DNA of 64,000 nt from Clostridia bacterium (GTDB lineage: Bacteria; Bacillota; Clostridia; Christensenellales; CAG-138), in assembly GCA_045603585.1 (NCBI GenBank), contig JAZUMK010000030.1, forward strand, positions 6,607-70,606, written 5' to 3'. Within the stretch, counting starts at the first letter, position 1. Every line of letters begins with the position of its first letter. The notes under the pieces are model-generated. The model was not told the origin of the DNA and ran no database searches. It was given only the letters and a program-made list of their open reading frames with translations. The translations under genes and the position numbers were made by a program. Of the stretch, positions 26,593 through 46,035 are shown piece after piece.

Positions 26593-26612
26593 ATTTATTT
26601 ATTCCTCCCCAA

Positions 26613-27755: not shown

Positions 27756-27775
27756 TGTAATCCCTCCTAAAATAA

Positions 27776-29080
27776 TTAGATTAATATACCGAGTTGTTTT
27801 GCAGCACTTGTAAGTTCATCGCGGAAATTGGGGTGTGCTATAGAGATAAGCGCCTTTGTCCTCTGGGACAGAGTCTTTCCTCTGAGCTTGGCCACGCCGT
27901 ATTCTGTTACGATGTAATCCACGTCATTTTTGCTGGTTGTAACAAGCGCGCCCTTGGAAAGTGTAGGGGCTATTCTGCTGACAGTTCCGCCTTTGGCAGT
28001 GGAGGGGAAGGCGATGAAGCTCTTACCGCCCTTGGACTGCACTGCTCCGCGCACATAATCAGCCTGTCCACCTGAACCGGACATGTGCTTTGTTCCCATG
28101 GATTCGGCACATACCTGACCGTAGAAGTCCACCTCAAGGGCAGCATTTACGGAGATAAAGTTGGGGTGCTGTGCAATAACGTTGGGGTCGTTTACGTAAT
28201 CCACCGGAAGCATTAAAAATGCGGGATTGTCATTTATAAAGTCATATGTGCGCTTGGTGCCAAGAACCAGTGTAGCAACGCTTTTGCCCTTGTGTATGGG
28301 CTTGAGTTGGTTGGTAACCACGCCGCTTTCGATCATGTCCACCATGCTTTCGGTAAAAAGCTCGGTGTGGATGCCCATGTCGTGCTTATTCTGTCTCAGG
28401 GCAAGGCCAACAGCCTCGGGGACTGCACCGATACCAAGCTGCAGGGTTGCTCCGTTGGGGATTTCCTCAGCTATCATTCCGCCTATAACGTGGCTTATCT
28501 CATCAATGGCAGTGGCGGGCAGCGCAGGCAGAGGGGTGTCGCTTTCGCAAAGAGCTGCAACCTGAGAAATATGAATCATGGGGGAACCGAATGTTCTTGG
28601 CATATTCGGATTTACTTCCAAATAAATGCGCTTTGCCTTGTTGTACAGTACCTCACTGTATGAGCCTACCGCTCCGCTGGAAAACCATCCGTGGCTGTCC
28701 ATCGGGGAAACAGTGGCAAAGAAGGCATCGGTGTCCACATAATCCCTGTGAAGGGAAGGAATATCACGATAATGGCATGACATAATGTCCGCGCGGCCTT
28801 CATTGACAGCCTTGCGCAAACCGCCGCCGGAAAACCAGGATACAGGGGTAATACCCTGGGAGGCCTCAGGACTTAAAGCGGAAAGGGGCATAACATCCAG
28901 TACGGAATGCAGCTTTACATCCTTGATGTCGCCGGCTTTGGCTCTTTCACCTATCTCGTTTATAATGTTTGTGGGTATAGCTGCGGCAATATCCATAGTA
29001 CAGTTCCAACCGGATTGTACCTGATCGGCTATCTGCTTTGCCGAGCACAGCTTTGATTTGTATTGTTCGCTAAATTCCAT
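27776..29080 (-). CDS. Acetyl-CoA hydrolase/transferase-family CoA-transferase (4-hydroxybutyrate/butyryl-CoA:acetate type)
   Basis: It is collinear with the Cat2/AbfT family (LQLGIGAVPEAV, GSGGQADYVRGA, VTEYGVAKLRGK). I place the start at MEFSEQYKSKL because AAGGAGAG lies upstream. Confidence 0.85.
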   Translation of the reverse strand: MEFSEQYKSKLCSAKQIADQVQSGWNCTMDIAAAIPTNIINEIGERAKAGDIKDVKLHSVLDVMPLSALSPEASQGITPVSWFSGGGLRKAVNEGRADIMSCHYRDIPSLHRDYVDTDAFFATVSPMDSHGWFSSGAVGSYSEVLYNKAKRIYLEVNPNMPRTFGSPMIHISQVAALCESDTPLPALPATAIDEISHVIGGMIAEEIPNGATLQLGIGAVPEAVGLALRQNKHDMGIHTELFTESMVDMIESGVVTNQLKPIHKGKSVATLVLGTKRTYDFINDNPAFLMLPVDYVNDPNVIAQHPNFISVNAALEVDFYGQVCAESMGTKHMSGSGGQADYVRGAVQSKGGKSFIAFPSTAKGGTVSRIAPTLSKGALVTTSKNDVDYIVTEYGVAKLRGKTLSQRTKALISIAHPNFRDELTSAAKQLGILI

Positions 29081-29160
29081 AAGCATCTCTCCTTTGGGGC
29101 AGAGCAAGTACGATAAGTAATGTACTTGCAAATACCCTGAAACAGATGAAAGATTAATTA

Positions 29161-29592
29161 TTAACCGATAACAACCAGAACATCGCCGGAGTTAACAGTA
29201 GCGCCCTTAGCGGTATTTACGGCAGTAACGGTGCCGTTTACTCCTGCGAAGATTTCATTTTCCATCTTCATGGCTTCAAGAATGACAACAACACTGTCTG
29301 TGGAGACGGTATCGCCAACCTTTACCTTAACATCAAGTACATTGCCGGGCATGGGAGCGGTTATGCTGGTTGCATCAGCAGCAGGAGCAACGGGGACAAC
29401 GGGAGCTGCAACGGGAGCAGGAGCTGCAACGGGAGCAGGAGCTGCTGCGGGGGCTGCGCCGGCGGGGACCCTGGTGAGGGGAGTTCTGGAAAGGGAAGTT
29501 CTGGAAAGAGAACGGGCGGGGGAAACTGCACCGACTTCTTCTACTTCAACTTCATAAGAGTTATTGCCTACATTTACGATAAATTTACGCAT
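29161..29592 (-). CDS. gcdC: Biotin carboxyl carrier protein with an Ala/Pro linker (GcdC / decarboxylase gamma-like)
   Basis: It has the biotinylation motif EAMKMENEI and the linker AAPAAAPAPVAAPAPVAAPVVPVAPAA. Confidence 0.85.
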   Translation of the reverse strand: MRKFIVNVGNNSYEVEVEEVGAVSPARSLSRTSLSRTPLTRVPAGAAPAAAPAPVAAPAPVAAPVVPVAPAADATSITAPMPGNVLDVKVKVGDTVSTDSVVVILEAMKMENEIFAGVNGTVTAVNTAKGATVNSGDVLVVIG

Positions 29593-29634
29593 ATATACTT
29601 ACTATCCTCCCAAGTTTAATTGTGAAAATTGCTT

Positions 29635-30006
29635 TTATGCTTCGGTCATAATTGCCATTACGGCACCTATGACAGCTATCAGTTCATTCTGATCGGCAGA
29701 GCCACTGCTGATTTTTCTTATGGAACGAATGCGCATTCCTTCCATATTACCATCACAGTAGGAGGCGATTGATGCGGCGATAACGGCATCAAAGAGCTTC
29801 CTGTCAGTATGCATCAGGTCGTTTTCGGCAGGCTGAGAAACAGCGGCTGTCTGGGGCTGACCGCTTGCGGAAGCAGCGGTCTGCTGGGGCTGGGATTTAT
29901 CCTTGAGAATGGCGCTCATCAGCTTTGTTAAACAGATGAGGCAAATTAACCCAAAGAATACGGTTCCCATGCCTAAAAACAAAACAAACAAAGCATTAAC
30001 TTCCAA
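29635..30006 (-). CDS. OadG-family small membrane protein (decarboxylase anchor subunit, GcdD-like)
   Basis: It has a single N-terminal TM segment (ALFVLFLGMGTVFFGLICLICL) followed by a Gln/Ala-rich soluble tail. I propose a TTG start at 30006, 7 nt after an AAGGAGA. The longer ORF-track N-terminus has no RBS. Confidence 0.55.
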   Translation of the reverse strand: MEVNALFVLFLGMGTVFFGLICLICLTKLMSAILKDKSQPQQTAASASGQPQTAAVSQPAENDLMHTDRKLFDAVIAASIASYCDGNMEGMRIRSIRKISSGSADQNELIAVIGAVMAIMTEA

Positions 30007-30147
30007 AATAGTATCTCCTTTGTGTTTGATATTCCATTGGCAACGGGTAAAGCTTAGATCGACCGGCTGCAGTGTGTTCGCAATACACAAGCGTGTGCAG
30101 CAAAGCAGTATTTGCGAATGGCGGAGCAGCACATGCAGCAAATATGG

Positions 30148-30918
30148 TTAATCAGTAAAAGCCGGAGGCCGCTTTTCAAGAAAAGCGCTGATACCCTCGG
30201 TGTGATCGGCAGTGGTAAAGGCTTCTTTGAAGCATTCTGCCTCAGCCATGAGGGAAGAATGAAGCTGGTTTTCTATACCGATGTACATTGCCCTTTTGGC
30301 TAACGCAACGGCGCTTTTACTATTCTTGGCGATAGAAGCAGCGAGAGCCAGACAGTCATCCATAAGGTTTTCAGGTTCGCTCAGCTCATCTGCCAGACCC
30401 AGTTCCTCTGCATCGGCAGCGGCAATGATTTTTGCGGTGCTGATGAGCTGAAAGGCCTTTGAAAAGCCAACGACCCGGGAAAGACGCTGGGTGCCGCCAA
30501 AGCCGGGAATAAGTCCCAGAGTTACTTCGGGGAGACCGAGCTTTGCCTTGGAAGAAACAATGCGCATATCGCAGGCCAGAGCAAGCTCCAATCCGCCGCC
30601 CAATGCATAACCGTTTACTGCGGCTATAACAGGCTGGGGCAGCTCGGCAATGCCATTAAGCACTCTGTGACCCAGATGGGCAAAGTCCTTGGCTTCTTCT
30701 GCGGAGAACTTTGACATGGAAGCTATATCGCCGCCTGATGCAAAGGATTTACCTGTGCCGGTAAGAATTATTACCTTAACATCCTTCTGCTGGGAAGCTT
30801 CATGAAGGGCGTTTTCCAGGTCGAGCAGCAGGGATTTATCTATTGCGTTTAAGGTTTCGGGCCTGTTTAGTGTTATGATCGCTGTATTATTCAGCTTTTC
30901 AACTGTTACGCTTGACAT
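30148..30918 (-). CDS. Enoyl-CoA hydratase (crotonase family)
   Basis: Both catalytic Glu contexts are present (GGGLELALACD and LGLPEVTLGLIPG). Confidence 0.9.
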   Translation of the reverse strand: MSSVTVEKLNNTAIITLNRPETLNAIDKSLLLDLENALHEASQQKDVKVIILTGTGKSFASGGDIASMSKFSAEEAKDFAHLGHRVLNGIAELPQPVIAAVNGYALGGGLELALACDMRIVSSKAKLGLPEVTLGLIPGFGGTQRLSRVVGFSKAFQLISTAKIIAAADAEELGLADELSEPENLMDDCLALAASIAKNSKSAVALAKRAMYIGIENQLHSSLMAEAECFKEAFTTADHTEGISAFLEKRPPAFTD

Positions 30919-30927
30919 GCCGGACCT

Positions 30928-31770
30928 CTATTGATAGGTATAGAAGCCGCGGCCGGACTTTTTACCGTATCTGCCCGCTTCAACATACTGACGAAGCAGG
31001 GGGCAGGGACGATACTTGGGATCGCCATAGCCTTTGTACATGATCTCCAGTACAGAGAGGATGGTATCAAGGCCGATGAAGTCAGCAAGCTGAAGGGGAC
31101 CCATGGGGTGAGCCATACCCAGCTTCATGATTTCGTCAATGCCTTCGGGAGTGGCAACGCCTTCGTATACGCAGTAGATCGCCTCGTTAATCATAACCTG
31201 TAGAACCCTATTGGAAACAAAACCGGGAACATCACGTACTTCAATGGCAACCTTACCCATTTCCTCGCTGGTTTTGCAAACAAAATCGGTGGTTTCCTGA
31301 TCGGTTTCAAGGCCGCGGATAACTTCTACCAGGGTCTTTACAGGAACGGGATTCATAAAGTGCATGCCAATAACCTTCTCGGGACGCTTGGTAACGGCTG
31401 CAATGCTGGTGATAGGGAGGGAGGAGGTATTGGTGGCAAAGATGGTCTCAGGCTTGCAGATCTCATCCAGCTGCTTGAAAACGCTGCTCTTGATCTCCAT
31501 GTTTTCGATGATGGCTTCAATTACCAGATCGCAGTCAGCAGCATCCTGCAGGGAGGAAGAGGTGGTCAGCTTGCTGAGAACTTCTTCTTTTCTTTCTGCG
31601 GGGATCTTGCCCTTGTCCACATTCCTCTGCAGATTGCCGGCAATATAGGCCATACCCTTTTCAAGGGCTGCGGCTGCAGTGTCGGAGAGGATGGTATCAT
31701 AGCCTGCCTGTGCACAGCACTGTGCAATACCGCTGCCCATCTGGCCAGCGCCTAATACAAAAACTTTCAT
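30928..31770 (-). CDS. hbd: 3-hydroxybutyryl-CoA dehydrogenase
   Basis: It has MKVFVLGAGQMGSGIAQ (Rossmann fold) and the typical 280-aa Hbd layout. Confidence 0.9.
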   Translation of the reverse strand: MKVFVLGAGQMGSGIAQCCAQAGYDTILSDTAAAALEKGMAYIAGNLQRNVDKGKIPAERKEEVLSKLTTSSSLQDAADCDLVIEAIIENMEIKSSVFKQLDEICKPETIFATNTSSLPITSIAAVTKRPEKVIGMHFMNPVPVKTLVEVIRGLETDQETTDFVCKTSEEMGKVAIEVRDVPGFVSNRVLQVMINEAIYCVYEGVATPEGIDEIMKLGMAHPMGPLQLADFIGLDTILSVLEIMYKGYGDPKYRPCPLLRQYVEAGRYGKKSGRGFYTYQ

Positions 31771-31802
31771 GTGTTACTCCTTAAAGGTATTGTTTATCTT
31801 GG

Positions 31803-32996
31803 TTAATCGTCTATAGTTACATAAACAGCGTCGCCCTGAGCCATTGCGGAGCATATTGCGCATATGCCGCTCTTCTTGCCGGAACGCCTGAGCTCGTAAA
31901 TAAGGGTCATAAGGATTCGTGCGCCGGTTGCGCCGATGGGATGTCCTACGGCTACTGCACCGCCGTTTACATTTACCCTTTCATTGCGGGTTTCGTCGTC
32001 CATGCCGATGACCTTGCAGCTTACCAAGGGAACGGCGGCAAAGGCTTCGTTTATCTCATACAGATCCACGTCCTTGTAGCTCAAATTGTTCTTCTTGAGC
32101 AGCTTGGAGGTTGCAAGCCCGGGGACTGTGGAAATCAGATGGGACTGCTGGGCAGCCTGTGAATAATCGCGTATGGTGGCCAGTATGGGAGCGCCAAGCT
32201 CTTCGGCCTTTTCTCTTGACATAATTACTATTGCAGAAGCGCCGTCATTGGTGCCGGGAGCATTGCCGGCGGTAACAGTGCCGTCAGGAATGAATACCGG
32301 CTTAAGGGCGGCCAGACCTTCAAGCGTGGAATCGGGTCTGGGAGATTCGTCCTTATCCATTACCATGGTGCCTTTGCGGGTTTTAATGGTAACAGGGAAG
32401 CGCTCATCATCGAATTTATGGGCGGCTTCACCTGCGGCCCACAGTTTCTGGGAACGGAGAGCCCATTCATCCTGCATTTCTCTGGTTACGCCGTATTCTA
32501 CGGCAACTTTGCCGCCTATAACGGCCATGTGAACTTTATTTTCGGGGCAGGTAAGGCCGTCGTAAAGCATGGAGTCTTCCAGAGCAACGGAACCCATACG
32601 GGTGCCCCAACGGGTTCCAAGGGAAAGATAGGGGAGATTGCTCATGCTTTCCATGCCGCCTGCAACGATGATATCGGCATCGCCTGCTTTTATCATCTGT
32701 GCGCCCAAAACAACGGCTTTGAGAGCAGAGCCGCAAGCCTTGTTGATTGTCAGCGCGGGTACGTCGTGAGGAATACCGCCCAAAATAGATGCCTGTCGTC
32801 CGGGGACCTGACCTGCGCCATCGGGCACTACGATACCCATGATGGTCTCATCCACCATGCTGCCTTCAATGCCTGCACGGGCAAGTGCCTCACGTATAGC
32901 CATGCCGCCAAGTTCTGCTACGCTGATGTCCTTGAGCATACCGCCGAACTTGCCGAATGGGGTTCGTGCTGCGCTTACAACTACAACTTCCTTCAT
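31803..32996 (-). CDS. Acetyl-CoA C-acetyltransferase (biosynthetic-type thiolase)
   Basis: It has the active-site Cys in NKACGSALKAV, the C-terminal NVNGGAVAVGHPIGATGARI, and CSAMAQG. Confidence 0.92.
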   Translation of the reverse strand: MKEVVVVSAARTPFGKFGGMLKDISVAELGGMAIREALARAGIEGSMVDETIMGIVVPDGAGQVPGRQASILGGIPHDVPALTINKACGSALKAVVLGAQMIKAGDADIIVAGGMESMSNLPYLSLGTRWGTRMGSVALEDSMLYDGLTCPENKVHMAVIGGKVAVEYGVTREMQDEWALRSQKLWAAGEAAHKFDDERFPVTIKTRKGTMVMDKDESPRPDSTLEGLAALKPVFIPDGTVTAGNAPGTNDGASAIVIMSREKAEELGAPILATIRDYSQAAQQSHLISTVPGLATSKLLKKNNLSYKDVDLYEINEAFAAVPLVSCKVIGMDDETRNERVNVNGGAVAVGHPIGATGARILMTLIYELRRSGKKSGICAICSAMAQGDAVYVTIDD

Positions 32997-33020
32997 ATGA
33001 ATGTAAATACTCCTTTAATG

Positions 33021-33233
33021 TTACCCCCAGATATTGAAGCCATCGTCATCCATGTTGATTTCCTTCAGCAGGCAACGACTTCCGCCGGGGCAATCCGTTT
33101 TCTTATTGCAGTCTACGGGCTGTTCAAATGCATCTATCTGACAGCCCCCGCCATTATTGGCCGAAACCAGGATGGTGAGGGTGACCTCACCACCGATTTC
33201 GCACCTTTTTGTCATTTTGTATTCAAATTCCAT
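33021..33233 (-). CDS. Hypothetical 70-aa Cys-rich protein
   Basis: The ORF fills the gap between the two thiolase genes (7 nt and 24 nt spacers) and uses codons like its neighbours. It has five Cys, no recognisable family and a weak RBS. Confidence 0.45.
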   Translation of the reverse strand: MEFEYKMTKRCEIGGEVTLTILVSANNGGGCQIDAFEQPVDCNKKTDCPGGSRCLLKEINMDDDGFNIWG

Positions 33234-33240
33234 TGGCTGC

Positions 33241-34419
33241 TTAGCCTAAGTCCATACCGCAGATGGTTATACCGGCTACGCAGCAGTAGGGACGGCCGCC
33301 CATGTTATGGGTCATGCCCAGACGTACGTTTTCTCTCTGACGCTTGCCGGCCTTGCCGTGGAACTGGAGCCACATTTCGTAGATCATCCTCAGGCCGCTG
33401 GCGCCGATGGGGTGACCGAAAGACTTGAGGCCACCGTCAATATTGATGGGCAGCTTGCCGTCTCTGTCATACTTGCCGTCCATGAAGTCCTTCCAGCCCT
33501 GACCGCGTTCACTGAAACCGAGGTCTTCGCTGATGAGCAGCTCGGTGATGGTGAAGCAGTCGTGCACTTCGGCAAGGCTGATCTGCTCCTTGGGGTTGGT
33601 TACACCGGCTTCCTTATAGGCGGCCTGTGCGGCATTGATGGTTTCGGAAACGTAGGTAAAGTCGTACTTGGAGCTCTTCTTGTTAAAGCCGTTGCCGGAG
33701 GCGATCTGCAGAGCCTTTACATACATGGGATCCTTGCGGTAGTTCTTTGCAAGGCTGGCTCTGGTAACGATGGCGCAGGAGCAGCCGTCGGATACGCCGG
33801 AGCAGTCCATTACGGTGAGGGGATATGCTATGTAAGGCATATTCAGTATCTTTTCCATGGGAACTTCCTTACGGTACATTGCCTTGGGGGTAAGTGCGCC
33901 GTTGGAATGGTTCTTGAAGGAAATATGAGCAAGTGCCTCGTGAAGCTGCTCGCCGCTGATGCCGTACTTATGGGCATAGGCAGAAGCGCACAGGGAGAAG
34001 GCAGCGGGAGTGGACATGAAGGGTTCGGTCATGTCGGACTCAACGTGGGGTACAACCAATCCGCTGTAACCGCCGTCCTTAAGCTTTTCAGCGCCGATGG
34101 CCATGGCAACATCGCAGGCGCCGGAAGCTACTGCGTAGCATGCGTTGCGGAAGGCATCGGTGCCGGAGCAGCACTTGTTTTCCAGGCGGGTTACGGGCTT
34201 GTATTCGCTCATCAGTCTGGTGGATAGAGCATCGCCTGCAAGGCCGGATTCAAAAGTGCCGAACCAGAATGCGTCAATATCCTTAAGCTCGATACCGGCA
34301 TCCTTCAGGGCCTCCTGAGATGCTTCTACGATAAGATCTTCAAGGCTGGCATCAAAGCGCTCTCCAAAATAGCTGCAGCCCATGCCGATAACGGCACATT
34401 GATCGCGTATACTTGCCAT
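33241..34419 (-). CDS. SCPx/archaeal-type thiolase-like protein
   Basis: It has the active-site region LENKCCSGTDAF and the C-terminal DGGLKSFGHPIGASG. ATG 34419 (MASIRDQ) lies 8 nt after an AAGGAGG and just downstream of the upstream gene's stop codon. Confidence 0.85.
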   Translation of the reverse strand: MASIRDQCAVIGMGCSYFGERFDASLEDLIVEASQEALKDAGIELKDIDAFWFGTFESGLAGDALSTRLMSEYKPVTRLENKCCSGTDAFRNACYAVASGACDVAMAIGAEKLKDGGYSGLVVPHVESDMTEPFMSTPAAFSLCASAYAHKYGISGEQLHEALAHISFKNHSNGALTPKAMYRKEVPMEKILNMPYIAYPLTVMDCSGVSDGCSCAIVTRASLAKNYRKDPMYVKALQIASGNGFNKKSSKYDFTYVSETINAAQAAYKEAGVTNPKEQISLAEVHDCFTITELLISEDLGFSERGQGWKDFMDGKYDRDGKLPINIDGGLKSFGHPIGASGLRMIYEMWLQFHGKAGKRQRENVRLGMTHNMGGRPYCCVAGITICGMDLG

Positions 34420-34420
34420 A

Positions 34421-35839
34421 TTAGTTGCCTCCTTTTTCACGCTTCAAAACGGATTTCCAGTAATATGTGCGAATTCCGTCTACATTCTGCAGACAGCGGA
34501 AGGACATATCGACTTCCTTGCCGATGGCGATTTCCTCGGGCTCACAGTCCACGATGTTGGTGAAGATGCGGCCGCCGCCTTCGTAGTCAATAACGGCGAT
34601 CATGCTTGGGGGATCTTCGGAAACGGTGATCTTATCTACGGTATAGGTGGCGATGGTACCCTTCCTGCCAAGGAAGCGGTAGGGCTCATTCTGGTCTACG
34701 CTGTAGCACTCAAGGCAGGTACGTGCACCGGGATATTGAACGGCTCCGCAAACCTTGCAGCGAGTGCCGTAAAGGGCAAAATTCTTGCCGGGAACACGGT
34801 AGTATTCAGGCAGAGACATACGCCTGAGGGGAGGGCGGCGCTGGGGCTCAGTGGTGAGAAGTCTGCGCCAGCGGAGGTACTTTTCATAGGGCATGGAGGT
34901 ACGCTTATGCTCGATGCTGTACTTTACTCTCTTGGGAATAGAGGCAACTGCATCGGTGGTTTCAAATACCATAGCATCCACGCCTTCGCCGTAGCCCAGG
35001 AAAAGGATCTTGTCGCCGGGGTTGCTGTTTTCCAGTGCGGAGCACAGCATCAGAGGAGCTGCGGCACAGCCGGTGTTGCCAACCATATCGTACATATTTT
35101 CCTGAACCTGTTCAGGAGTGAAGCCCAGAGCCTTGGCCATGTCGCCCTGATAACGGGCGGTATGGGCATATATAACGGCTTTGGTGATATCCTTGGTTTC
35201 AAGGCCGCACTTTTCAAGAACCTTCTGAGCGGCTTCCTTCATCAGGGGCATGTACTGCTGAGTGATGGCAAAGCGCTCTTCCCAGCTCTTTACGAAGGGC
35301 TCGCCTTCGGATCTCCACAGATCAAAGAAGTCTCTGGAAATGGAAACGCTGCCCTTCAGCTCTGCAATAAGATCGCTGCTGCCGATTACGAATGCAGCTG
35401 CGCCATCGCCGAAAAGAAGTTCATTTGCGCCGTCGGCAAATGCGGTTCTGCAGTCAGCAGCGGCAACCAGAACGTCGTCGCCCTTTTCTGCATCGGCAAA
35501 GGCAGACAGCATAGCAGTGGAACCGCAGCGAAGAGAGCTGGCAAAGTCAGCGGTCTTAACATCGGTACCCATGTCCAGTGCAGCAGCCACAACTGTGGAG
35601 CACTGTTTTTCTTTGTAGGGAAGGGTGGTGGAGGCCAAGTAGATGCCGTTTACAGAGGGGGATTCCTCCAGTCCGCAGCAGTCAACCGCAGCGGCAACAG
35701 CCATAGTGATGCTGTCTTCGTCATAGCTGGCAACTGCCTTTTCACCGCGCTCTCCCTTTTTGGAATAAGCGTCGCAGATGCGTTTGCGTTCCAATCTGTT
35801 GAAAGGAATGTAAACACCGCAGGATTTAATACCTGTCAC
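34421..35839 (-). CDS. HMG-CoA-synthase-like condensing enzyme fused to a C-terminal DUF35 (zinc-ribbon + OB-fold) domain
   Basis: The N-terminal ~340 aa carry HMGCS-like Glu (SYDEDSITMA), Cys (SLRCGSTAM) and His (YAHTARY) contexts. The C-terminal ~130 aa carry CKVCGAVQYPGARTCLEC followed by an OB-like segment. It uses a GTG start 9 nt after an AAGGAGG. Confidence 0.8.
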   Translation of the reverse strand: MTGIKSCGVYIPFNRLERKRICDAYSKKGERGEKAVASYDEDSITMAVAAAVDCCGLEESPSVNGIYLASTTLPYKEKQCSTVVAAALDMGTDVKTADFASSLRCGSTAMLSAFADAEKGDDVLVAAADCRTAFADGANELLFGDGAAAFVIGSSDLIAELKGSVSISRDFFDLWRSEGEPFVKSWEERFAITQQYMPLMKEAAQKVLEKCGLETKDITKAVIYAHTARYQGDMAKALGFTPEQVQENMYDMVGNTGCAAAPLMLCSALENSNPGDKILFLGYGEGVDAMVFETTDAVASIPKRVKYSIEHKRTSMPYEKYLRWRRLLTTEPQRRPPLRRMSLPEYYRVPGKNFALYGTRCKVCGAVQYPGARTCLECYSVDQNEPYRFLGRKGTIATYTVDKITVSEDPPSMIAVIDYEGGGRIFTNIVDCEPEEIAIGKEVDMSFRCLQNVDGIRTYYWKSVLKREKGGN

Positions 35840-35918
35840 TCTAATTTTCCTCCTTTATATTTTTAAAATAATTTCTTCTGACCAGAAGAAGATGACGGCA
35901 AATTTATTTTACATAAAA

Positions 35919-36020
35919 AGTGTAGCATTGGCGGATTTTAAAGTCAAGAAAAATCATTGACAAATATAAAAATACGAGATATAATTATAATTTTAGTATT
36001 CACTTAAGGTTTCATTGAAA
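35919..36020. promoter_or_regulatory. Bidirectional promoter/operator module, copy 1 (operon side and tetR side)
   Basis: Core sequence: AAAGTCAAGAAAAATCATTGACAA (35940-35963).
- Minus strand: TTGACT, 17-nt spacer, TACACT (35924-35919), pointing to the 12-gene operon.
- Plus strand: TTGACA, 17-nt spacer, TATAAT (35980-35985), pointing to tetR.
- Palindrome TTTCATTGAAA at 36010-36020. Confidence 0.55.
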
Positions 36021-36172
36021 AAGCCAACGAGTTCAACACTTGCACATATTCTCAAAATGATGTATTATCTTGTTACATTCGGCGGAGAAATGGCGCAATA
36101 ATGTGAGATTGTCTCATTTTTTAGAGTTGCCGCCCGGGTAAATACCATAAGTTAGGAGGAGTTGCATTCAGC

Positions 36173-36775
36173 ATGGAACACACCCCAATTAAAAAACGTA
36201 AACAGCAAGCAATTGAAACAAAGGAGCGTATCTATAATGCCACCATCAGCCTGATCAGGGAGCGTGGATTCAGCAATGTCCTGATGGAGGATATTACAAA
36301 GGCGGCGGGCGTATCTGCAGGATTGTTTTATAACTATTTTGCCAATAAGGCAGATGTTATTACCGAGGCATTCTGCTATCGCAGCTGTAAGTATTACGAT
36401 GCTATGGAGCAGGAGCTGCAGGATATAGAGGGCATAGCAAAGCTTCGAATGATAATAAAGCATATGGCCACTCTGCGTCAGGAAATATACGATAAAGAAG
36501 AGCTGAGATATCACCATGTAAACATTCTTGAGACACATAAGCGCCTTGAGGATGTTAGGGAAAACAGCAGCAAACTTCATAAAATGATAATGGAATCTCT
36601 TACGGAGGCGAAGGCCGCCGGTGAGATCCCTGCAGCAATGGACATAGATAATATGTGCAATGTTGTAATGCTGGTGCTCAGAGGGGCCACATGGGAGTAT
36701 CTGGCTGCTACAGGAGAATATCCATTTGAAGAGCGGACCTGGGACATAATTTCAGGCTATATTAAGGGAATATAA
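36173..36775 (+). CDS. TetR/AcrR-family transcriptional regulator
   Basis: The 200-aa protein has an N-terminal HTH (RIYNATISLIRERGFSNVLMEDITKAAGVSAGLFYNYF). Confidence 0.9.
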   Translation: MEHTPIKKRKQQAIETKERIYNATISLIRERGFSNVLMEDITKAAGVSAGLFYNYFANKADVITEAFCYRSCKYYDAMEQELQDIEGIAKLRMIIKHMATLRQEIYDKEELRYHHVNILETHKRLEDVRENSSKLHKMIMESLTEAKAAGEIPAAMDIDNMCNVVMLVLRGATWEYLAATGEYPFEERTWDIISGYIKGI

Positions 36776-36789
36776 TTGAAATATAACAT

Positions 36790-36816
36790 AAAAGCGGCAT
36801 AAAGCCGCTTTTTGCA
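36790..36816. terminator. Bidirectional hairpin terminator after tetR
   Basis: AAAAGCGGCataaAGCCGCTTTTTG. Confidence 0.7.
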
Positions 36817-36829
36817 TGTTCGCTGATTA

Positions 36830-36930
36830 TTTCAATGAAACCTTAATTGAAATAAAACCTTTAATTATACTCTATAATTTTATGCTTGTCAATAATGATT
36901 CTTGACTTTGCCTATACCCAATGTTATACT
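36830..36930. promoter_or_regulatory. Bidirectional promoter/operator module, copy 2 (inverted relative to copy 1)
   Basis: Core sequence: TTGTCAATAATGATTCTTGACTTT (36886-36909).
- Plus strand: TTGACT (36902-36907), 17-nt spacer, TATACT (36925-36930), pointing to the gcdA-like gene.
- Minus strand: TTGACA, 17-nt spacer, TATAAT, pointing back toward tetR.
- Palindrome TTTCAATGAAA at 36830-36840. Confidence 0.55.
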
Positions 36931-36995
36931 TCTACTGTGTAAAGCTGTTTCTATATAACACATATAAAATATTACTGTGAAACAGGGAGGTTTCC

Positions 36996-38762
36996 ATGGA
37001 TACAGAATATGTAATGCACCGTTATTTTCAGGGGATGCCCCAGATAGGTACTCCGCTTGCCTCTCGGGATACTGCAAATGAGCAGCAGCTCAGGCAGATA
37101 GAAGAGGAACTGGATGAAGCTTTGAGAGTTTTGCTGGAGGCAGGCGTAAGTGACGATTCTCTCAATAAGAGAGGTCAGCTCACTGCTCTTCAGAGGCTTG
37201 GTGTCCTTATTGACGAGGGTACCTGGCGTCCCATTAACAGCCTGTTCAATCCCGAATTCAATGAAGATGACGGATGCAGCGTTCTTACCGGTATGGCAAA
37301 GGTGGAAGGTAAGTGGACTGTTATCATCGCCTTCGATAATAAGAAAACCGCAGGCGCATGGGTTCCCGGTCAGGGCCGTAAGATCGTCCGTGCTACCGAG
37401 ATCGCCGAATCCCTGCGTGTTCCCCTTATATATGTACTTAACTGCAGCGGTATGAACCTGCTTCTGCAGGAAAAGCTGTTCAGCGGCCGTCTGTGCAGCG
37501 GCACTCCCTTTTATCGTCATTCCAGACTGCAGCAGGAAGGCATGCCTGTTCTTATCGGCATCTATCAGACCAATCCTGCCGGCGGCGGATACCATGCAAT
37601 CAGTCCTTCTCTGCTTATCGCCAAGGATGATGCCAACTTTGCAGTAGGCGGCTCCGGTATACTGGGCGGTATGAGCTCCAAGGGCTTCTATACTGCTGAA
37701 AGCGCACGTACCCTTATAAATTCTGTGACCAGCTCAGAAACTCCTCCCGCACCCGGCCAGATGAATGTTCATTACTCTCAGACCGGATTTGTAAGAGAAG
37801 TTTACGGCGAAGAAGAAGAGGTGCTGCTGGCGCTGCGTAAGTATGTTGCCGCAATGCCGGCTTATGATCCTGAGTTCTTCAGAGTAGCTCCTCCCATGGA
37901 GCCCCTGTATCCCGGTGAGGATCTGTACACATTGGTTCCTTTCAACCAGCGCAGGCCCATCAATATGCCTGAAGTGGTTGCCCGTCTTGTGGATAACAGC
38001 GAATTTGACGAGTATAAACCGGATTACGGTCCCGAAATTTTCTGCGGTCTCTGCCGCTTGAGCGGTTATCTTGTAGGTATCGTTGGCAACCGTCAGGGTC
38101 TGCTGATGAATTACCCCGAATATCGCCAGAACAGCGTAGGCCTGGGCGGCAAGCTGTATCGTCAGGGTCTCATCAAGATGAATGAGTTCACCACAATGTG
38201 CGCTCGTGACCGCATACCTCTCATCTGGATACAGGATACCACCGGTATCGATGTTGGCGATGATGCTGAGGTTGCAGAAGTTCTGGCTCTGGGTCAGGCT
38301 CTGGTATACTCTGTGCAGTCTGCTGGTGTTCCTCAGATGGAGCTGACCATACGTAAGGCCAATGGCGCCGCGCACTTCCTTATGGGCGGTCCTCAGGGCA
38401 ACGACAGCTGCGTATTCAGCTTCTGCACTGCAGCCAGCGAATACAATCCCATCGTAGCGGAAACCGCTGCAGCTGCTGTATACTCCAGGCGTCTGGTAAG
38501 AGATGATGCTGCCGGCAAGGATATTCAGCCCACCATCGATCTTATGAATGCGCTTATCCAGCGTTATAAGGATACTTCCGAGAATCCCCGCTTTATCGTA
38601 AAGACCGGTCTTGCTGAGGAATGCCTGCCTATGCCTTGCATCAGAGATTACTTTGTTACATTTGCTGAGGCTGCATATCAGAATCCTGCAAGCACATGCC
38701 CCCCTCATCTGATGCTGACTCCCCGCGTGATTAAGGATTATAACGACCTTAAGAACAAGTAA
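36996..38762 (+). CDS. gcdA: Carboxyltransferase of the glutaconyl-CoA decarboxylase alpha-subunit type
   Basis: The 588-aa protein is collinear by eye with my recollection of Acidaminococcus GcdA. Shared segments include YFQGMPQIGTPL, NKRGQLTALQR, DNKKTAGAWVPGQ, GIYQTNPAGGGYH, LLMNYPEY, GGKLYRQGLIKMNEF, WIQDTTGIDVG and GGPQGND. Confidence 0.85.
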   Translation: MDTEYVMHRYFQGMPQIGTPLASRDTANEQQLRQIEEELDEALRVLLEAGVSDDSLNKRGQLTALQRLGVLIDEGTWRPINSLFNPEFNEDDGCSVLTGMAKVEGKWTVIIAFDNKKTAGAWVPGQGRKIVRATEIAESLRVPLIYVLNCSGMNLLLQEKLFSGRLCSGTPFYRHSRLQQEGMPVLIGIYQTNPAGGGYHAISPSLLIAKDDANFAVGGSGILGGMSSKGFYTAESARTLINSVTSSETPPAPGQMNVHYSQTGFVREVYGEEEEVLLALRKYVAAMPAYDPEFFRVAPPMEPLYPGEDLYTLVPFNQRRPINMPEVVARLVDNSEFDEYKPDYGPEIFCGLCRLSGYLVGIVGNRQGLLMNYPEYRQNSVGLGGKLYRQGLIKMNEFTTMCARDRIPLIWIQDTTGIDVGDDAEVAEVLALGQALVYSVQSAGVPQMELTIRKANGAAHFLMGGPQGNDSCVFSFCTAASEYNPIVAETAAAAVYSRRLVRDDAAGKDIQPTIDLMNALIQRYKDTSENPRFIVKTGLAEECLPMPCIRDYFVTFAEAAYQNPASTCPPHLMLTPRVIKDYNDLKNK

Positions 38763-38788: not shown

Positions 38789-39955
38789 ATGGCAGAACTT
38801 CCACTTAAAGGCATAAAAGTAGTTGAACTTACAACTTATGTAGCTGCTCCCATTTGCGGAAGAATGCTCTGCGATATGGGCGCCGAGGTAATAAAGATTG
38901 AGCCGCCCACAGGTGATGTGTGGAGACATCTGAGACGCAATGTGGCCACTGCTCCTTCCGGAGAGGTTGTAAACTCTATGTTCCAGATAACCAACGCCGG
39001 CAAAAAGAGCGTTGTTTTGAACCTCAGAGACCCTGCGGATATGGAAAACCTCCATAAACTCCTCGAAGATGCTGATGTATTCCTTACCAACAACCGTCTG
39101 TCCTCCCTGAAAAAGATGGGGCTGGATCACGATACTATCTGCAAGAAGTATCCTCACCTGATTTATGCTCTGCTTACCGGTTATGGTGAGGAAGGTCCCG
39201 ATGCAATGAAGCCCGGCTTTGACCTGGTGGCATTCTTCAGCATGTCCGGATATTTGCTGGATATGTCCTGTAAGGAAAATAAGTATCCTGCTTCCGCACC
39301 TACCGGCGCAGGCGATGTTACTTCCGGTATGGCACTGCTCAGCGGTATACTTGCCGCACTGTATAAGAAAAAGGAAACCGGCATGGGCGACTACGTTTCG
39401 GTATCCCTTTACAATACCGGCCTCTGGGTATACAGCACCCCCATTATGCGTGCCGGCGATCCTTACAATACCGAACGCCGTCTGAGCCGCAACGACATGT
39501 GTCCTCTGGCAACCATGTATCGCTGCGGAGATGATGAGTGGATACAGGTATCCATACTTAATGAGGTTGAGCAGGCTCCCGTGTTCTTCAGACTGCTGGG
39601 CGTACCCGAGCTTGCTGAGGACCCCAGATTTGCTACCGATAAGGCTCGCCTTAAGTACACTAAGGAACTGTTTGAGATCGTTGAACCCATATTCCTGACC
39701 AAGCCCAGCTATGAATGGCTGGAAATGCTTCAGAAGGAAGCTATCGTAAGCAGCCGCCTGGCACACTTCTCGGATGTTGCGTCCAGCGAGCAGGCGTGGG
39801 CAAACGGATATCTGGAAAACTTTACCTTCCCCAATGGGGAAACGGCGGTAATACCCTGTTCTCCCGTACGCCTTGAATCCATAGGCGTAGCTCCCTCCAA
39901 GAATGCGCCCGCACTGGGTGAAAACACTGAAGAGGTCCTCTCCAATCTGAAATAG
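38789..39955 (+). CDS. Family III (CaiB/BaiF) CoA-transferase
   Basis: The N-terminus is LKGIKVVELTTYVAAPICGRMLCDMGAEVIKIEPP, with a downstream Asp-containing PGFDLV region typical of the family. Confidence 0.88.
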   Translation: MAELPLKGIKVVELTTYVAAPICGRMLCDMGAEVIKIEPPTGDVWRHLRRNVATAPSGEVVNSMFQITNAGKKSVVLNLRDPADMENLHKLLEDADVFLTNNRLSSLKKMGLDHDTICKKYPHLIYALLTGYGEEGPDAMKPGFDLVAFFSMSGYLLDMSCKENKYPASAPTGAGDVTSGMALLSGILAALYKKKETGMGDYVSVSLYNTGLWVYSTPIMRAGDPYNTERRLSRNDMCPLATMYRCGDDEWIQVSILNEVEQAPVFFRLLGVPELAEDPRFATDKARLKYTKELFEIVEPIFLTKPSYEWLEMLQKEAIVSSRLAHFSDVASSEQAWANGYLENFTFPNGETAVIPCSPVRLESIGVAPSKNAPALGENTEEVLSNLK

Positions 39956-40095: not shown

Positions 40096-41049
40096 TTAGG
40101 GAAGGGGATGGTGGCATGCTACGAAGTGGTTGGGCTCCAGCTCGGTGAGAGCAGGGTCGGAAGCGAAGCACTCTTCGGTAGCATAGGGGCAACGCTTTGC
40201 AAAACGGCAGGCGTTGGGCAGATTGATGGGGGAAGTGATCTCGCCCTTGAGCAGGATACGGTCCATCTTCTTGTCGATATCCGGTTCGGGGATAGCGGAC
40301 AACAGCGCCTGAGTATAGGGATGACGGGGATGCTCAAAGAGAGCGTCGGCAGCAGCTTTTTCTACCATCTGGCCCAGATACATGACCGCGATATCATCAG
40401 CAAAGTAATATACAACGGAAAGGTCATGGGTGATGAAAATGTAAGTAAGGCCAAGCTGCTCCTGCAGGTTCTTCAGCAGGTTAAGAATCTGCGCCTGAAT
40501 GGAAACGTCCAGGGCGGATACGGGCTCGTCGCAGATGATGAACTTGGGGTTCATGGCCAGTGCGCGGGCGATGCCGATACGCTGTCTTCTGCCGCCGTCC
40601 AGCTCGTGAGGATAGGAATTGAACAGACGTTCTGCAAGACCTACAGTGGACATAAGCTCAAGAACACGGTTGTCGATCTCTTCCTTGTCAGTCAGGATCT
40701 TATTGAGCACAATGGGCTCTCTGATCAGCTGGTTTACGGTGTAGCGAGGATCCAGGGAGGAGAAGGGATCCTGGAAGATGATCTGCATGTCCTTGCGCAG
40801 GGCGCGCATTTCATTTGCGGAACACTTGGTGATATCCTTGCCTTCAAACAGAACCTCGCCGGAGGTGGGCTCGATAAGGCGGAGAATGGCACGGCCGGTG
40901 GTAGACTTACCGCAGCCGGATTCGCCTACGATGCCAAGGGTTCTGCCGCGTTCGATAGAGAAGCTTACGCCGTCAACTGCATGGAGCATACCACGCTTGG
41001 TTTTAAAGTATTTCTTTAGGTTTTTGACTTCGAGAAGGGTATCGCTCAT
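40096..41049 (-). CDS. ABC transporter ATP-binding protein (OppF/DppF-type)
   Basis: It has Walker A GESGCGKST, signature ELDGGRRQR, Walker B FIICDEPVSALD and the C-terminal Opp-type extension. Confidence 0.9.
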   Translation of the reverse strand: MSDTLLEVKNLKKYFKTKRGMLHAVDGVSFSIERGRTLGIVGESGCGKSTTGRAILRLIEPTSGEVLFEGKDITKCSANEMRALRKDMQIIFQDPFSSLDPRYTVNQLIREPIVLNKILTDKEEIDNRVLELMSTVGLAERLFNSYPHELDGGRRQRIGIARALAMNPKFIICDEPVSALDVSIQAQILNLLKNLQEQLGLTYIFITHDLSVVYYFADDIAVMYLGQMVEKAAADALFEHPRHPYTQALLSAIPEPDIDKKMDRILLKGEITSPINLPNACRFAKRCPYATEECFASDPALTELEPNHFVACHHPLP

Positions 41050-41050
41050 G

Positions 41051-42094
41051 CTACTGCTTGCTCCTTTCTATGCGGAATTCGGGATCGTCATAAGCGCTGC
41101 AGGCTACCATGTGAGTGTCGGATACCCATCTTTCGGCGGGAATGCTTTCCTTGCACTTATCGGTAGCATAGGGACAGCGGTCATAGAATGCGCAACCCGT
41201 ATGCTTGATGGTGGGATCGGGAATAAGGCCGGCGATGGGGGTCAGCTTGGAGGTGCGGTCGCCGATCTTGGGCAGGGAGTTGAACAGACCCTCGGTGTAG
41301 GGATGCATGGTGGACTTAAAGAGGTCTTCAAGGGAACCACGCTCTACGATACGGCCGGCATACATAACGGCAACGTCATCGCAAATCTGAGCAACTATAC
41401 CAAGGTCATGAGTAATCATGATCATGGAGGTCTGATAATGATCCTTCAGGTTCTTCATCAGGTCAAGTACCTGAGCCTGAATGGTAACATCCAGAGCGGT
41501 GGTAGGTTCATCAGCAATAAGGATGTTGGGGTGGCAGGCAAGGGCGATAGCAATAACTACGCGCTGCTTCATACCGCCGGAGAACTGGTGAGGATATTCG
41601 GAAGCGCGCTCGCCGGGGATACCTACGGTTTCCAGCATCTGAACTGCACGGGCATAGCTTTCTTCCTTGGTTACGTTCTCATGAAGAAGTATGCTCTCTG
41701 CAATCTGATCGCCTACGGTGAAAACAGGGTTGAGGGAGGTCATGGGGTCCTGGAAAATCATGGAGATCTCCTTACCGCGCATAACTTCCAGTTCGGATTC
41801 GGACATTTCCATTACGTTGCGTCCGTTTACCTTGATGGTGCCGTTGGTAATAACTCCCGGAGGATCGGGAACCAGCTTGAGCAGGCTGAGCATGGTGGTG
41901 GTCTTGCCTGCGCCGGTCTCGCCTACGATGCCGAGAGTGCGGCTTTTCTTGAGGGCGAGGCTTACATCGTTAACGGCATATACGGTATCGTCTTCGGTAC
42001 GGAACTCGATGGAAAGGTTTTCTACTTCCAGAACGTTCTCGCCATCATAGGGCTGAACGTCATGGTTTTTTACAACGTTTGCGTTCTTTGTCAT
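41051..42094 (-). CDS. ABC transporter ATP-binding protein (OppD/DppD-type)
   Basis: It has Walker [10 protein letters not shown], signature FSGGMKQR and Walker [13 protein letters not shown]. Confidence 0.9.
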
Positions 42095-42108
42095 CTTGTG
42101 TTCCTCCG

Positions 42109-43020
42109 TTACCTCTTGAGCTTGGGATCCAGTGCGTCTCTCAGACCGTCACCGGCAAGGTTGATGGCCAGAACGGTGATGAAGATGAAAACGCCGGGCC
42201 ATATGGTCAAATAAGGATATTCTCTCATATACTGTCTGGAGTCGGAAAGCATGGTGCCCCACTCAGGCATGGGAGAAGGTACGCCCAGACCAAGGAAGCT
42301 GAAGCTGGAAGCCAGAATGATGTTACCGCCCATACGCATGGAAGCCTGAACAAGAATAGAGGAGAATGCGTTGGGGAATACATGCTTGAATATGATGGTA
42401 ATATCCCTTGCGCCGATAGCGCGGGCTGCCTCAACATACTCGTTATCGCGAACCGTCATAACAGCAGCGCGAGCGGTTCTGGAGAAGTGAGGTATGGTGG
42501 ATGCGCCGATGGCTACGATCAGGTTTATAAAGCTGGTGCCGGTAATGGCAACGAACATTATAACTACCAGAATATTGGGGATCATCAGGAAGATCTCCAT
42601 TATGCGCATGATGATAGCCTCGGTCTTGCCGCCAAAGTAACCGGCGATGCAGCCCAGAGTGGTACCAAAGAGCATGGAAACGATAACGGAGCACAGACCG
42701 ATGATGAGGGAATACTTAGCGCCGTAGCATATACGCATAAGTACGTCACGACCCATCTGGTCAGTACCGAAGGGATGAGCCAGATTGGGCTTTATAAGAC
42801 GATCCTGAGGGATCATCTGAATAACCTGAGTTTCGTAATTCAGCACAAAGGAGGAAGCTATGGCGACGAGAATGATAAGGCCAAATACTATAAGGCCTGC
42901 CACAGCGCCCTTGTTCTTTTTGAACTGACGCCATATCTGTTCACTGCGCTTCTGCTTTACATACTTGCTGTGGATGCTGGCAGTGTCGTTGTTTTTCTTT
43001 GCTTTTGCCATATCTCTCAC
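42109..43020 (-). CDS. ABC transporter permease (OppC/DppC-type)
   Basis: It is a polytopic protein with an EAA-like loop (EYVEAARAIGA). Confidence 0.9.
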   Translation of the reverse strand: MRDMAKAKKNNDTASIHSKYVKQKRSEQIWRQFKKNKGAVAGLIVFGLIILVAIASSFVLNYETQVIQMIPQDRLIKPNLAHPFGTDQMGRDVLMRICYGAKYSLIIGLCSVIVSMLFGTTLGCIAGYFGGKTEAIIMRIMEIFLMIPNILVVIMFVAITGTSFINLIVAIGASTIPHFSRTARAAVMTVRDNEYVEAARAIGARDITIIFKHVFPNAFSSILVQASMRMGGNIILASSFSFLGLGVPSPMPEWGTMLSDSRQYMREYPYLTIWPGVFIFITVLAINLAGDGLRDALDPKLKR

Positions 43021-43022
43021 CT

Positions 43023-43952
43023 CTACTTTGTGTACTTTGCTTTGATTCGAGGATCAACAAGCGCGTAGGAAACGTCTACCATAAGCAGAATGGCTGAAGT
43101 AAGAACCGTGGTCATTATTATGCAGCCGGTGGTCATGGTATAGTCATTGGTACGGATAGCCTGAACAACAAGCTGACCAATGCCGGGCCAAGCGAATACG
43201 GATTCTACAACAGCAGCACCGCCGATGAGGATGCTGAACTGACTGCCTGCGATGGTAATAATGGGGATAAGTGCATTCCTCAGAGCGTGAGACCATACCA
43301 GCTTGCGCTGGGATACGCCCTTTGCCTTAGCGGTACGCAGGTAGTCTGCGCGAATGCAGTCCAGCATGGAGGAACGGGTGGTTCTCATAACCAGAGCCAT
43401 GTTCTGGAGAGCAAGGGTAACGGTGGGGAGAACCAGGCTCTTCCAGCCCTGTTCGGCGCCTGTACTGGGCAGCCATCCCAGCTTTACGGAGAACAGCAGA
43501 ACCAGCAGAAGACCGAGCCAGAAGTTAGGTACAGACTGGCCGACGATGGAGAATACGGAAGCTCCGGTGTCCAGCCAGGAATTATGATGGGTAGCCGCCC
43601 ATATACCCATTGGTATGGCGACTATAAGTGTCAAAATCATGGAGCTTACAGCAAGCATAATGGTATAGGGAAGGCGAGCGGTAAACTCATCCCATACGTT
43701 AAGGGAGCTGTACATACTTATACCCAGATCCCCCTTGAGTACGTTTTTCATATACCTGACGTAGCGAACAGGCATGGGATCGTTATATCCCAGCTCTTCG
43801 CGCATCTGTTCACGCTGCTCTTCTGTAGCATCAGGGTACATGGTGAATATGGGATCGCCGGGGGCGAGCTCCATAGCGCCATATACTATGAAGGAAACTA
43901 TCAGAATCATAGGGATGAGCACGAAGAGGCGTTTTACGACATATTTCCACAT
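43023..43952 (-). CDS. ABC transporter permease (OppB/DppB-type)
   Basis: The N-terminus is MWKYVVKRLFVLIPMILIVSFIVY and the EAA-like loop is DYLRTAKAKG. Confidence 0.9.
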   Translation of the reverse strand: MWKYVVKRLFVLIPMILIVSFIVYGAMELAPGDPIFTMYPDATEEQREQMREELGYNDPMPVRYVRYMKNVLKGDLGISMYSSLNVWDEFTARLPYTIMLAVSSMILTLIVAIPMGIWAATHHNSWLDTGASVFSIVGQSVPNFWLGLLLVLLFSVKLGWLPSTGAEQGWKSLVLPTVTLALQNMALVMRTTRSSMLDCIRADYLRTAKAKGVSQRKLVWSHALRNALIPIITIAGSQFSILIGGAAVVESVFAWPGIGQLVVQAIRTNDYTMTTGCIIMTTVLTSAILLMVDVSYALVDPRIKAKYTK

Positions 43953-45675: not shown

Positions 45676-45790
45676 TTTGCGTTTCCTCCTGATTTTTTTG
45701 TTTTTTTGTAAGGTCATTGATAAGCAACTGGGGTTCAACAATTTCTTTTCATTGAATAACTTACTCGATTTGTACAACTCACTCGATGTT

Positions 45791-45892
45791 AGTATATAAG
45801 TCAGTCAAAAAAAAGTCAAGATAAATATTGACAAATACCATATAATAGAAATATAATATAAGTTTAAACATTCATTAACAAATTCAATGAAA
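45791..45892. promoter_or_regulatory. Bidirectional promoter/operator module, copy 3
   Basis: Core sequence: AAAGTCAAGATAAATATTGACAA (45812-45834).
- Minus strand: TTGACT, 17-nt spacer, TATACT (45796-45791), pointing to the ABC operon.
- Plus strand: TTGACA, 18-nt spacer, TATAAT (45852-45857).
- Palindrome-like ATTCAATGAAA at 45882-45892. Confidence 0.5.
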
Positions 45893-45966
45893 AAGTCAGC
45901 AAGCGATTTGCGGCGATTTTACATTGAGAAATTCACCGAAAGATTTAACAAAAAGCAAAACTTATT

Positions 45967-46035
45967 ATTATAAATAGATTTTTTTTGATTGTCAATCATG
46001 ATTTTCTTGACTTTGCGTGATTGCAGTGATATGGT
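45967..46035. promoter_or_regulatory. Bidirectional promoter/operator module, copy 4 (inverted relative to copy 3)
   Basis: Core sequence: TTGTCAATCATGATTTTCTTGACTTT (45989-46014).
- Plus strand: TTGACT (46007-46012), 17-nt spacer, TATGGT (46030-46035), pointing to the 3-hydroxyacyl-CoA dehydrogenase gene.
- Minus strand: TTGACA, 17-nt spacer, TATAAT (45972-45967). Confidence 0.5.

Follow-up and report, generated by a model that had tools for sequence, protein, structure and literature searches.

Repeated back-to-back promoter modules with a candidate TetR operator in an acyl-CoA gene cluster of a Clostridia bacterium

Results

In a 64,000-nucleotide (nt) stretch of the genome of a Clostridia bacterium (assembly GCA_045603585.1, CAG-138 lineage), referred to below as the window (contig C30, positions 6607 to 70606), the gene of a TetR-family regulator (tetR) is enclosed by two inverted copies of a module that combines two back-to-back promoters with a palindromic element. 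A second pair of such modules, facing each other with no gene in between, lies at 45791-46035. The module probably serves as the common cis-regulatory element of a small regulon under the local TetR-family repressor, a distant relative of FadR and AcrR which is presumably released by an acyl-coenzyme A (acyl-CoA). The four outward promoters lead into four transcription units of one acyl-CoA fermentation and uptake cluster.

Four modules occur in the genome, all within the window

An earlier note on this DNA had described an inverted module of about 95 bp flanking tetR. The elements that it listed were all found where it had placed them, and the observation itself was confirmed, with the module larger than first described. 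Copy 1 (35919-36031, plus orientation) and copy 2 (36818-36930, inverted) aligned pairwise across about 110 nt and form an inverted repeat enclosing tetR. The repeat finder reported two pairs of arms within it, 35940-35994 with 36855-36909 (75% complementary) and 35999-36030 with 36820-36851 (84% complementary).

The assembly searched for further copies comprised 2.04 Mb in 63 contigs with 51% GC. With the core pattern AAAGTCAAGA-N5-7-ATTGACAA, loosened for the fourth copy to AGTCAA-N7-11-TTGACA, four occurrences were found in the genome, at 35940, 36886, 45812 (plus) and 45990 (minus), all of them within the window. A blastn search of the 2.04-Mb genome with copy 1 as the query returned copy 2 with an E value of 2.6e-12 and copy 4 with an E value of 3e-5, and no module beyond these four was detected in the genome by regular expression, by an nhmmer profile of the module or by blastn. 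Perfect TTGACA-17-TATAAT sites number 23 in this genome, and 3 of the 23 are inside modules. On these counts the motif is not a generic AT-rich promoter feature, a possibility that the earlier note had raised.

Modules 3 and 4, the facing pair, occupy a 454-bp gap between an Opp/Dpp-type ABC operon on the minus strand and a 3-hydroxyacyl-CoA dehydrogenase gene. Their inward starts are about 96 nt apart, a distance kept at 91 to 96 nt across orthologs, and in this second locus no terminator was found between the facing inward promoters and the far-side genes.

Both promoter arms of the module appear to be under selection

The promoter sites around tetR were found by a consensus scan, which recovered the -10-like hexamers at 17-nt spacing that had been noted on both strands of copies 1 and 2. 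The outward promoter of module 1 (35919..35947, minus; TTGACT-17-TACACT, TG-extended) faces a 14-gene acyl-CoA operon, and that of module 2 (36902..36930, plus; TTGACT-17-TATACT, TG-extended) serves the carboxyltransferase and CoA-transferase genes. Both inward promoters read TTGACA-17-TATAAT, matching the consensus at 12 of 12 positions. The one in module 1 (35957..35985, plus), its start near 35990-35993, is directed at tetR; the one in module 2 (36864..36892, minus), its start near 36857, runs antisense to the 3' end of the gene. At the second locus, the outward promoter of module 3 (45791..45819, minus; TTGACT-17-TATACT) serves the ABC operon, and its inward partner (45828..45857, plus; TTGACA-18-TATAAT) has a start near 45864. 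The inward promoter of module 4 (45967..45995, minus; TTGACA-17-TATAAT, 12/12) faces module 3 with a start near 45960, and its outward partner (46007..46035, plus; TTGACT-17-TATGGT, TG-extended) serves the dehydrogenase gene. The outward arms of all four modules face operons, which supports the fit that had been proposed for the two around tetR; the operon to the left of tetR has 14 genes.

For a comparison of the arms, 19 modules were extracted, from at least seven metagenomic lineages with TetR proteins 47 to 87% identical. The outward arm was TTGAC(T/A) with a 17-nt spacer in all 19 modules, with TG ahead of the -10 box in 18, and the inward arm was TTGACA with a 17- or 18-nt spacer in all 19, with 11 or 12 of 12 consensus matches. 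Hexamers 16 to 18 nt apart, as expected for sigma-A, were thus present in 38/38 arms. The gap between the back-to-back -35 boxes ranged from 8 to 11 nt, and in the left-hand second-locus modules of the orthologous loci L046 and L047 the outward arm reads TTGACA. Conservation in the multiple alignment was limited to the four hexamers with a few bases next to them and to a block that follows the inward -10 box; the spacers varied freely. As the hexamers and spacer lengths hold while the spacer sequence drifts, both arms appear to be selected promoters of the sigma-A type. The outward promoters seem strong, having TG-extended -10 boxes and AT-rich discriminators.

A palindrome behind the inward promoter is the likely TetR operator

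The block after the inward -10 box contains the palindrome TTTCAWTGAAA, present as TTTCATTGAAA at 36010-36020 and as TTTCAATGAAA at 36830-36840. Its extended consensus, TTGAY-N3-TTCAWTGAA-N3-RTCAA, is a palindromic element that lies near tetR, is found in all modules and is conserved alongside the TetR orthologs. This element is likely the TetR operator, and its length suits two TetR dimers. The candidate operator of module 1, TTCACTTAA-GGT-TTCATTGAA-AAA-GCCAACGAG, occupies 35999..36031 on the plus strand, from +8 to +40 of the inward promoter, and that of module 2, TTCAATTAA-GGT-TTCATTGAA-ATA-ATCAGCGAAC, occupies 36818..36851 on the minus strand. Module 3 has TTCATTAAC-AAA-TTCAATGAA-AAA-GTCAGCAAGCGA at 45871..45906 (plus), and module 4 has a degenerate form, TTTTGTTAA-ATCT-TTCGGTGAA-TTT-CTCAATG, at 45922..45953 (minus). 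Compared with the consensus, the four copies in the window match at 9, 9, 9 and 7 of the 9 central positions and at 4/5 positions of the right arm.

Counted from the inferred inward start, 17 of the 19 modules have TTCAWT half-sites at +8 and +20/+23, and the block is centered at about +24, with a continuation that reads TGAA-N3-GTCAAcga. In two orthologs the TTCAWTGAA core sits within a palindrome of 25 to 29 bp: the downstream module of L045 has a perfect 29-bp palindrome, AATTGACTTGTTCAATGAACAAGTCAATT, at the operator position, and L044 has CGTTGAT-ATT-TTCAATGAA-AAA-ATCAACG. The genome contains 13 further TTCAWTGAA sites; these are in unrelated surroundings, with neither arms nor promoter context, apart from one exception in the leader of the ABC operon. 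This extra TTCATTGAA site at 45748..45756 lies at about +29 to +37 of outward promoter 3, and ortholog L047 has the full TCAATTAAACATTCAGTGAA composite at the matching place. Genome-wide, TTCAWTGAA with a GTCAA-like flank is found in the modules only. The earlier note had offered two plausible operators, this palindrome and the AGTCAA..TTGACA inverted repeat. The palindrome, with its fixed position and its place at the core of a longer palindrome, is the better candidate; the repeat, with its gap of variable length, is unlikely to be an operator and is taken up again in the Discussion.

The transcribed block showed no conserved RNA fold with RNAalifold, and its folding energies equaled those of shuffled sequence; on these grounds an RNA element in the inward transcripts was rejected. 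An Rfam scan of 35500-37300 gave three matches only, all below threshold and chance-like.

tetR, its proximal promoter and its terminator

The tetR gene (36173..36775, plus) encodes a protein of 200 amino acids with a TetR_N domain (Pfam PF00440, 6e-13, above the cut-off). The protein is distantly related to Bacillus FadR (PDB 3WHB at 7e-9) and to AcrR/MtrR, and with the NCBIfam FadR model NF053878 it scored 40.9 bits against a cut-off of 200, which places it outside that equivalog family. The helix-turn-helix segment AGVSxGLFYNYF, the TetR recognition helix, is invariant in ten orthologs.

The inward promoter of module 1 had been proposed as the tetR promoter. It does point at tetR, but it is not the only candidate: a proximal promoter (TTGCAC-17-TATTAT, 36040..36068, plus) lies between it and the gene and is kept as CTTGCA-17-TATGAT in every ortholog, including one contig that begins there. 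In the tetR leader 3' of the proximal promoter (36081-36139), a possible CGGCGG...CCGCCG stem encloses a small hairpin, TGAGA-TTG-TCTCA, followed by TTTTTT. This arrangement looks like an attenuator; it gave a subthreshold match to the Rfam S4-Clostridia leader (24.5 bits, threshold 37.5), and its conservation in the 70% orthologs is not obvious.

Downstream of tetR, a terminator hairpin at 36790..36812 has U-tracts on both strands in this genome. It had been suggested that the antisense transcript from module 2 ends at this bidirectional hairpin as an RNA of about 60 to 70 nt. The hairpin with its antisense-side U-tract is present in this genome and in L042, the relative with 87% TetR identity, but the antisense U-tract is missing in four more distant orthologs (L044, L046, L031 and L047). 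Since the hairpin would not stop the inward transcript in these four, the outcome there would be antisense transcription into tetR rather than a discrete small RNA.

The four-module layout is old

The TetR orthologs in the protein collection are 87, 71, 70, 69, 68, 67, 67, 57 and 46% identical to the protein by alignment; for three of them the search table gives 66% and 47%, and L045 is the ortholog of 46 to 47%. No ortholog was found among 60 genomes of related species (eight from the same genus) and 400 genomes from the order. A wider scan of genome contigs gave N-terminal-domain matches only, in Nocardia and others, and a metagenome-wide scan with the module pattern gave three matches, which are chance hits or unrelated promoters.

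Synteny is kept on the metagenome contigs with TetR orthologs and takes in the ABC operon and the second dehydrogenase gene. On these contigs the module is present in both tetR intergenic regions in the same orientations, and a facing pair is present in the gap between the ABC operon and the dehydrogenase gene. The modules are 68 to 71% identical to their positional orthologs, compared with 60% identity to paralogs in the same genome. The closer match between positional orthologs shows that the four-module layout is old and that each copy has been maintained separately, which argues against both a transposable element and gene conversion. L037 has neither the downstream operon nor the downstream module.

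The whole cluster of about 25 kb (window positions about 21900-47000) is syntenic in the metagenome contigs at about 70% protein identity. Its GC content is unremarkable, and a compositional island was rejected for this reason. The patchy distribution of the cluster suggests old horizontal spread or frequent loss. One contig has been rearranged: in L043, a 66% ortholog, tetR is followed at 901-1362 by an IS200-type Y1 transposase gene and by sulfatase/alkyl-sulfatase genes in place of the carboxyltransferase gene, and the rearrangement has replaced the downstream module.

The operons served and their leaders

The 14-gene acyl-CoA operon to the left of tetR (21947-35839, minus) encodes an HMG-CoA-synthase-like/OB-fold protein, an SCP-x-type thiolase, a 70-amino-acid protein, a thiolase and a hydroxyacyl-CoA dehydrogenase; a crotonase, an OadG-like protein, a butyryl-CoA:acetate-type CoA-transferase and an acyl-CoA dehydrogenase; and EtfB, EtfA, a flavin reductase, a metallo-beta-lactamase-fold protein and a membrane transporter. 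To the right of tetR are the genes of a GcdA-like carboxyltransferase (36996-38762) and a family III CoA-transferase (38789-39955), followed by the Opp/Dpp-type ABC transporter operon (40096-45674, minus) and the 3-hydroxyacyl-CoA dehydrogenase gene (46129-47001).

Three further observations were made in the leaders of these operons. The leader of the large acyl-CoA operon (35866-35895, minus) contains a hairpin, TTCTTCT-GGTC-AGAAGAA-ATTATTTT, with a U-rich run after the stem, and the corresponding leader of L046 (about 8080-8130) has an 11-bp stem plus TTTTT; this hairpin may be a leader attenuator. The open reading frame of the ABC substrate-binding protein (44080-45777), if begun mechanically at the TTG at 45777, would take in the leader and its extra operator-like site; the start is likely the ATG at 45674, which is preceded by GGAGGAAACGCAAA. 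Finally, an exact 12-nt direct repeat, TACAACTCACTC, brackets the facing module pair at 45773-45784 and 46091-46102. The left copy lies where the outward transcript of the ABC operon begins, on the strand opposite to it, and the right copy is about 27 nt upstream of the dehydrogenase ATG. In orthologs L046 and L047 both corresponding relative positions read TATGCAACTTATAC, so the two copies co-vary between lineages. The repeat could be the site of a second regulator or could reflect pairing between the two leaders.

Discussion

In the mechanism that we favor, two TetR dimers would occupy the 25-bp pseudo-palindrome (+10 to +38), and the inward promoter would be repressed directly. For the module upstream of tetR this would amount to negative autoregulation, added to the weak constitutive output of the proximal promoter. 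In the module downstream of tetR, the inward promoter would produce, under TetR control, a short or antisense transcript that counters tetR expression on induction. At the second locus each derepressed inward promoter would read into the far-side operon, adding inducible transcription to that of the outward promoter. With no terminator in between, such reading must follow derepression unless collisions intervene.

Several points weigh against this mechanism. The candidate operator is about 90 to 120 bp from the outward starts, with its center at about -104 from the outward operon start and no overlap with the promoter of the target operon, and only the ABC-operon leader has a site of its own. 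With the operator about 100 bp away, it is unexplained how three of the four operon promoters would be repressed directly. Far-side read-through does not account for module 2 in this genome, where a good terminator lies within about 80 nt of the inward promoter, and far-side read-through at the second locus would set two strong promoters in head-on collision. The palindrome, moreover, is assigned to this TetR by adjacency and co-conservation only.

In a different, unifying account the inward promoters would be noncoding drivers. TetR would control only these, and the firing of an inward promoter would set the activity of the adjacent outward promoter, its transcript being irrelevant. The link could be topological, by way of negative supercoiling that transcription generates, or it could lie in the two promoters competing for the upstream DNA that they share. 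In favor of this account, outward promoter, inward promoter and operator always travel together in fixed geometry even where there is nothing to transcribe, as at the module 2 terminator and between the facing modules 3 and 4, and L037, which lacks the downstream operon, also lacks the downstream module. The inward promoters are uniformly near consensus, as expected of a driver, and the dmp Po/Pr pair is a precedent for back-to-back promoters coupled by supercoiling (PMC5175336). The outward promoters, however, seem strong themselves, unlike the weak supercoil-sensitive promoters of the known case, and the competition version predicts that operon expression goes down on induction, which would be odd for catabolic genes. 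We regard it as unlikely that TetR never touches three of the four operon promoters and instead gates a near-consensus noncoding partner whose firing, by supercoiling or RNA polymerase occupancy, sets operon output. Under such a scheme the inward-facing pairing would let the driver transcripts cancel each other or end at the tetR terminator. Control of the outward promoters would be accounted for simply if the AAAGTCAA-N-TTGACAA inverted repeat were the operator, with one dimer covering both -35 boxes and shutting both promoters. The repeat is the most conserved part of the module, and the long palindromes of L045 and L044 have outer arms that are TTGAC/GTCAA-like. The order of the arms is everted, however (GTCAA..TTGAC, compared with TTGAC..GTCAA in the long palindromes), and the 3-nt variation in their spacing, from 8 to 11 nt, is rarely tolerated by a dimeric helix-turn-helix protein. 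Each arm also lies exactly 17 nt from a -10 box, and the outward arm drifts to TTGACA in L046 and L047. For these reasons the repeat is better read as a pair of -35 boxes, and its being the TetR operator is quite improbable.

The two remaining explanations concern the purpose of module 2 and the origin of the repeats. That module 2 exists to make a discrete trans-acting small RNA of about 75 to 80 nt would agree with the arrangement in this genome and in L042, where a hairpin with a same-strand U-tract lies about 45 to 80 nt beyond a 12/12 promoter. Such an RNA is nevertheless highly improbable: the transcribed part is the operator sequence common to all four modules, it has no conserved secondary structure, a folding energy no better than shuffled sequence and no Rfam match above threshold, and the U-tract needed is missing in the four distant orthologs. 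The inverted repeats might also be the termini of a small mobile element, a tetR cassette with an empty copy at 45791-46035 resembling a miniature inverted-repeat transposable element (MITE). The occurrence of two inverted pairs, one enclosing nothing, and the absence of TetR orthologs from the eight genomes of the same genus and the 400 of the order would fit such an origin. Neither a transposase gene nor a target-site duplication (flanking direct repeat) was seen, however, and there are only four copies, about 60 to 70% alike, whereas a MITE would be expected in many near-identical copies at variable sites; each module is also nearer to its positional counterpart in other lineages than to the other modules of its genome. 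The repeat itself consists of promoter and operator blocks with intervening sequence that is free to vary, synteny is identical down to 68% TetR identity, and the GC content is unremarkable. Mobile-element termini are extremely improbable, and this explanation was rejected on positional orthology and the lack of a transposase.

Within 10 kb the locus brings together eight promoter arms and four operators, with natural variants from at least seven lineages, which makes it a compact and well-defined test case. It poses the question of how a repressor controls operons whose promoters are about 100 bp from its candidate site, and of why promoters with nothing in front of them are conserved. Should the inward promoters work through coupling or interference, they would represent a natural design principle of interest to research on transcription mechanisms and to synthetic biology; control through noncoding drivers, if true, would be a natural and conserved case, present four times in a Gram-positive-type genome, of promoter coupling used for indirect control. 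If they are merely extra inducible promoters plus a tetR antisense promoter, the locus would be an ordinary local regulon governing the acyl-CoA fermentation cluster of an uncultured anaerobe.

Among known systems, Tn10 tetR/tetA and typical local TetR repressors have operators that overlap the target promoters. The present locus resembles Tn10 tetR/tetA in having the repressor gene beside divergent targets, intergenic palindromes and, as predicted here, autoregulation. It differs in that the operator is on a separate back-to-back partner promoter of each target, and in that the module is fourfold, in two inward-facing pairs of which one encloses tetR. Convergent promoters as antagonistic switch arms are found in prgQ/prgX of the Enterococcus faecalis plasmid pCF10. 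Interference between convergent promoters has also been described for lambda PR/PRE (PMC5001618). As in both of these systems, promoters here fire towards each other across an overlap with repressor sites, and given this overlap transcriptional interference and antisense pairing would be expected. In contrast to both, where the promoters are antagonistic arms of a switch, the two facing promoters carry the same candidate operator and should derepress together, and each is backed by an outward promoter. In the dmp Po/Pr system of Pseudomonas, which comprises a sigma-54 promoter and a weak sigma-70 promoter, coupling was shown experimentally (PMC5175336). The module shares with it a nonoverlapping back-to-back pair in which a strong regulated promoter could pass regulation to a neighbor without a site of its own; here, however, both promoters are of the sigma-A type and strong looking, and coupling is only a hypothesis.

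A further comparison is with FadR. In Bacillus halodurans, FadR binds a pseudo-palindrome of 21 bp as a dimer of dimers, and acyl-CoA releases it (PMC5397183). Like FadR (YsiA) in B. subtilis and B. halodurans, the present regulator is encoded among genes for thiolase, hydroxyacyl-CoA dehydrogenase, acyl-CoA dehydrogenase and electron transfer flavoprotein, and its candidate operator is an AT-rich pseudo-palindrome of at least 21 bp, suited to two dimers, in a box common to several operons. The operator sequences differ (TTGAY-N3-TTCAWTGAA-N3-RTCAA here, GATGAATGAATACTCATTCAT for FadR); a FadR box of the ATGAATGA-N-TCATTCAT type was not found in the target promoters, only the TGAA/TTCA core being common. 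The candidate operator is also located behind the inward promoter, not on the operon promoter as in FadR. The sequence features thus point to a putative local TetR/FadR-like regulon with repeated back-to-back promoter modules, a variant that does not match the known FadR layout. The repressor logic itself is ordinary; what is unusual is the mirrored arrangement of back-to-back and face-to-face promoters, with inward arms that have no obvious product.

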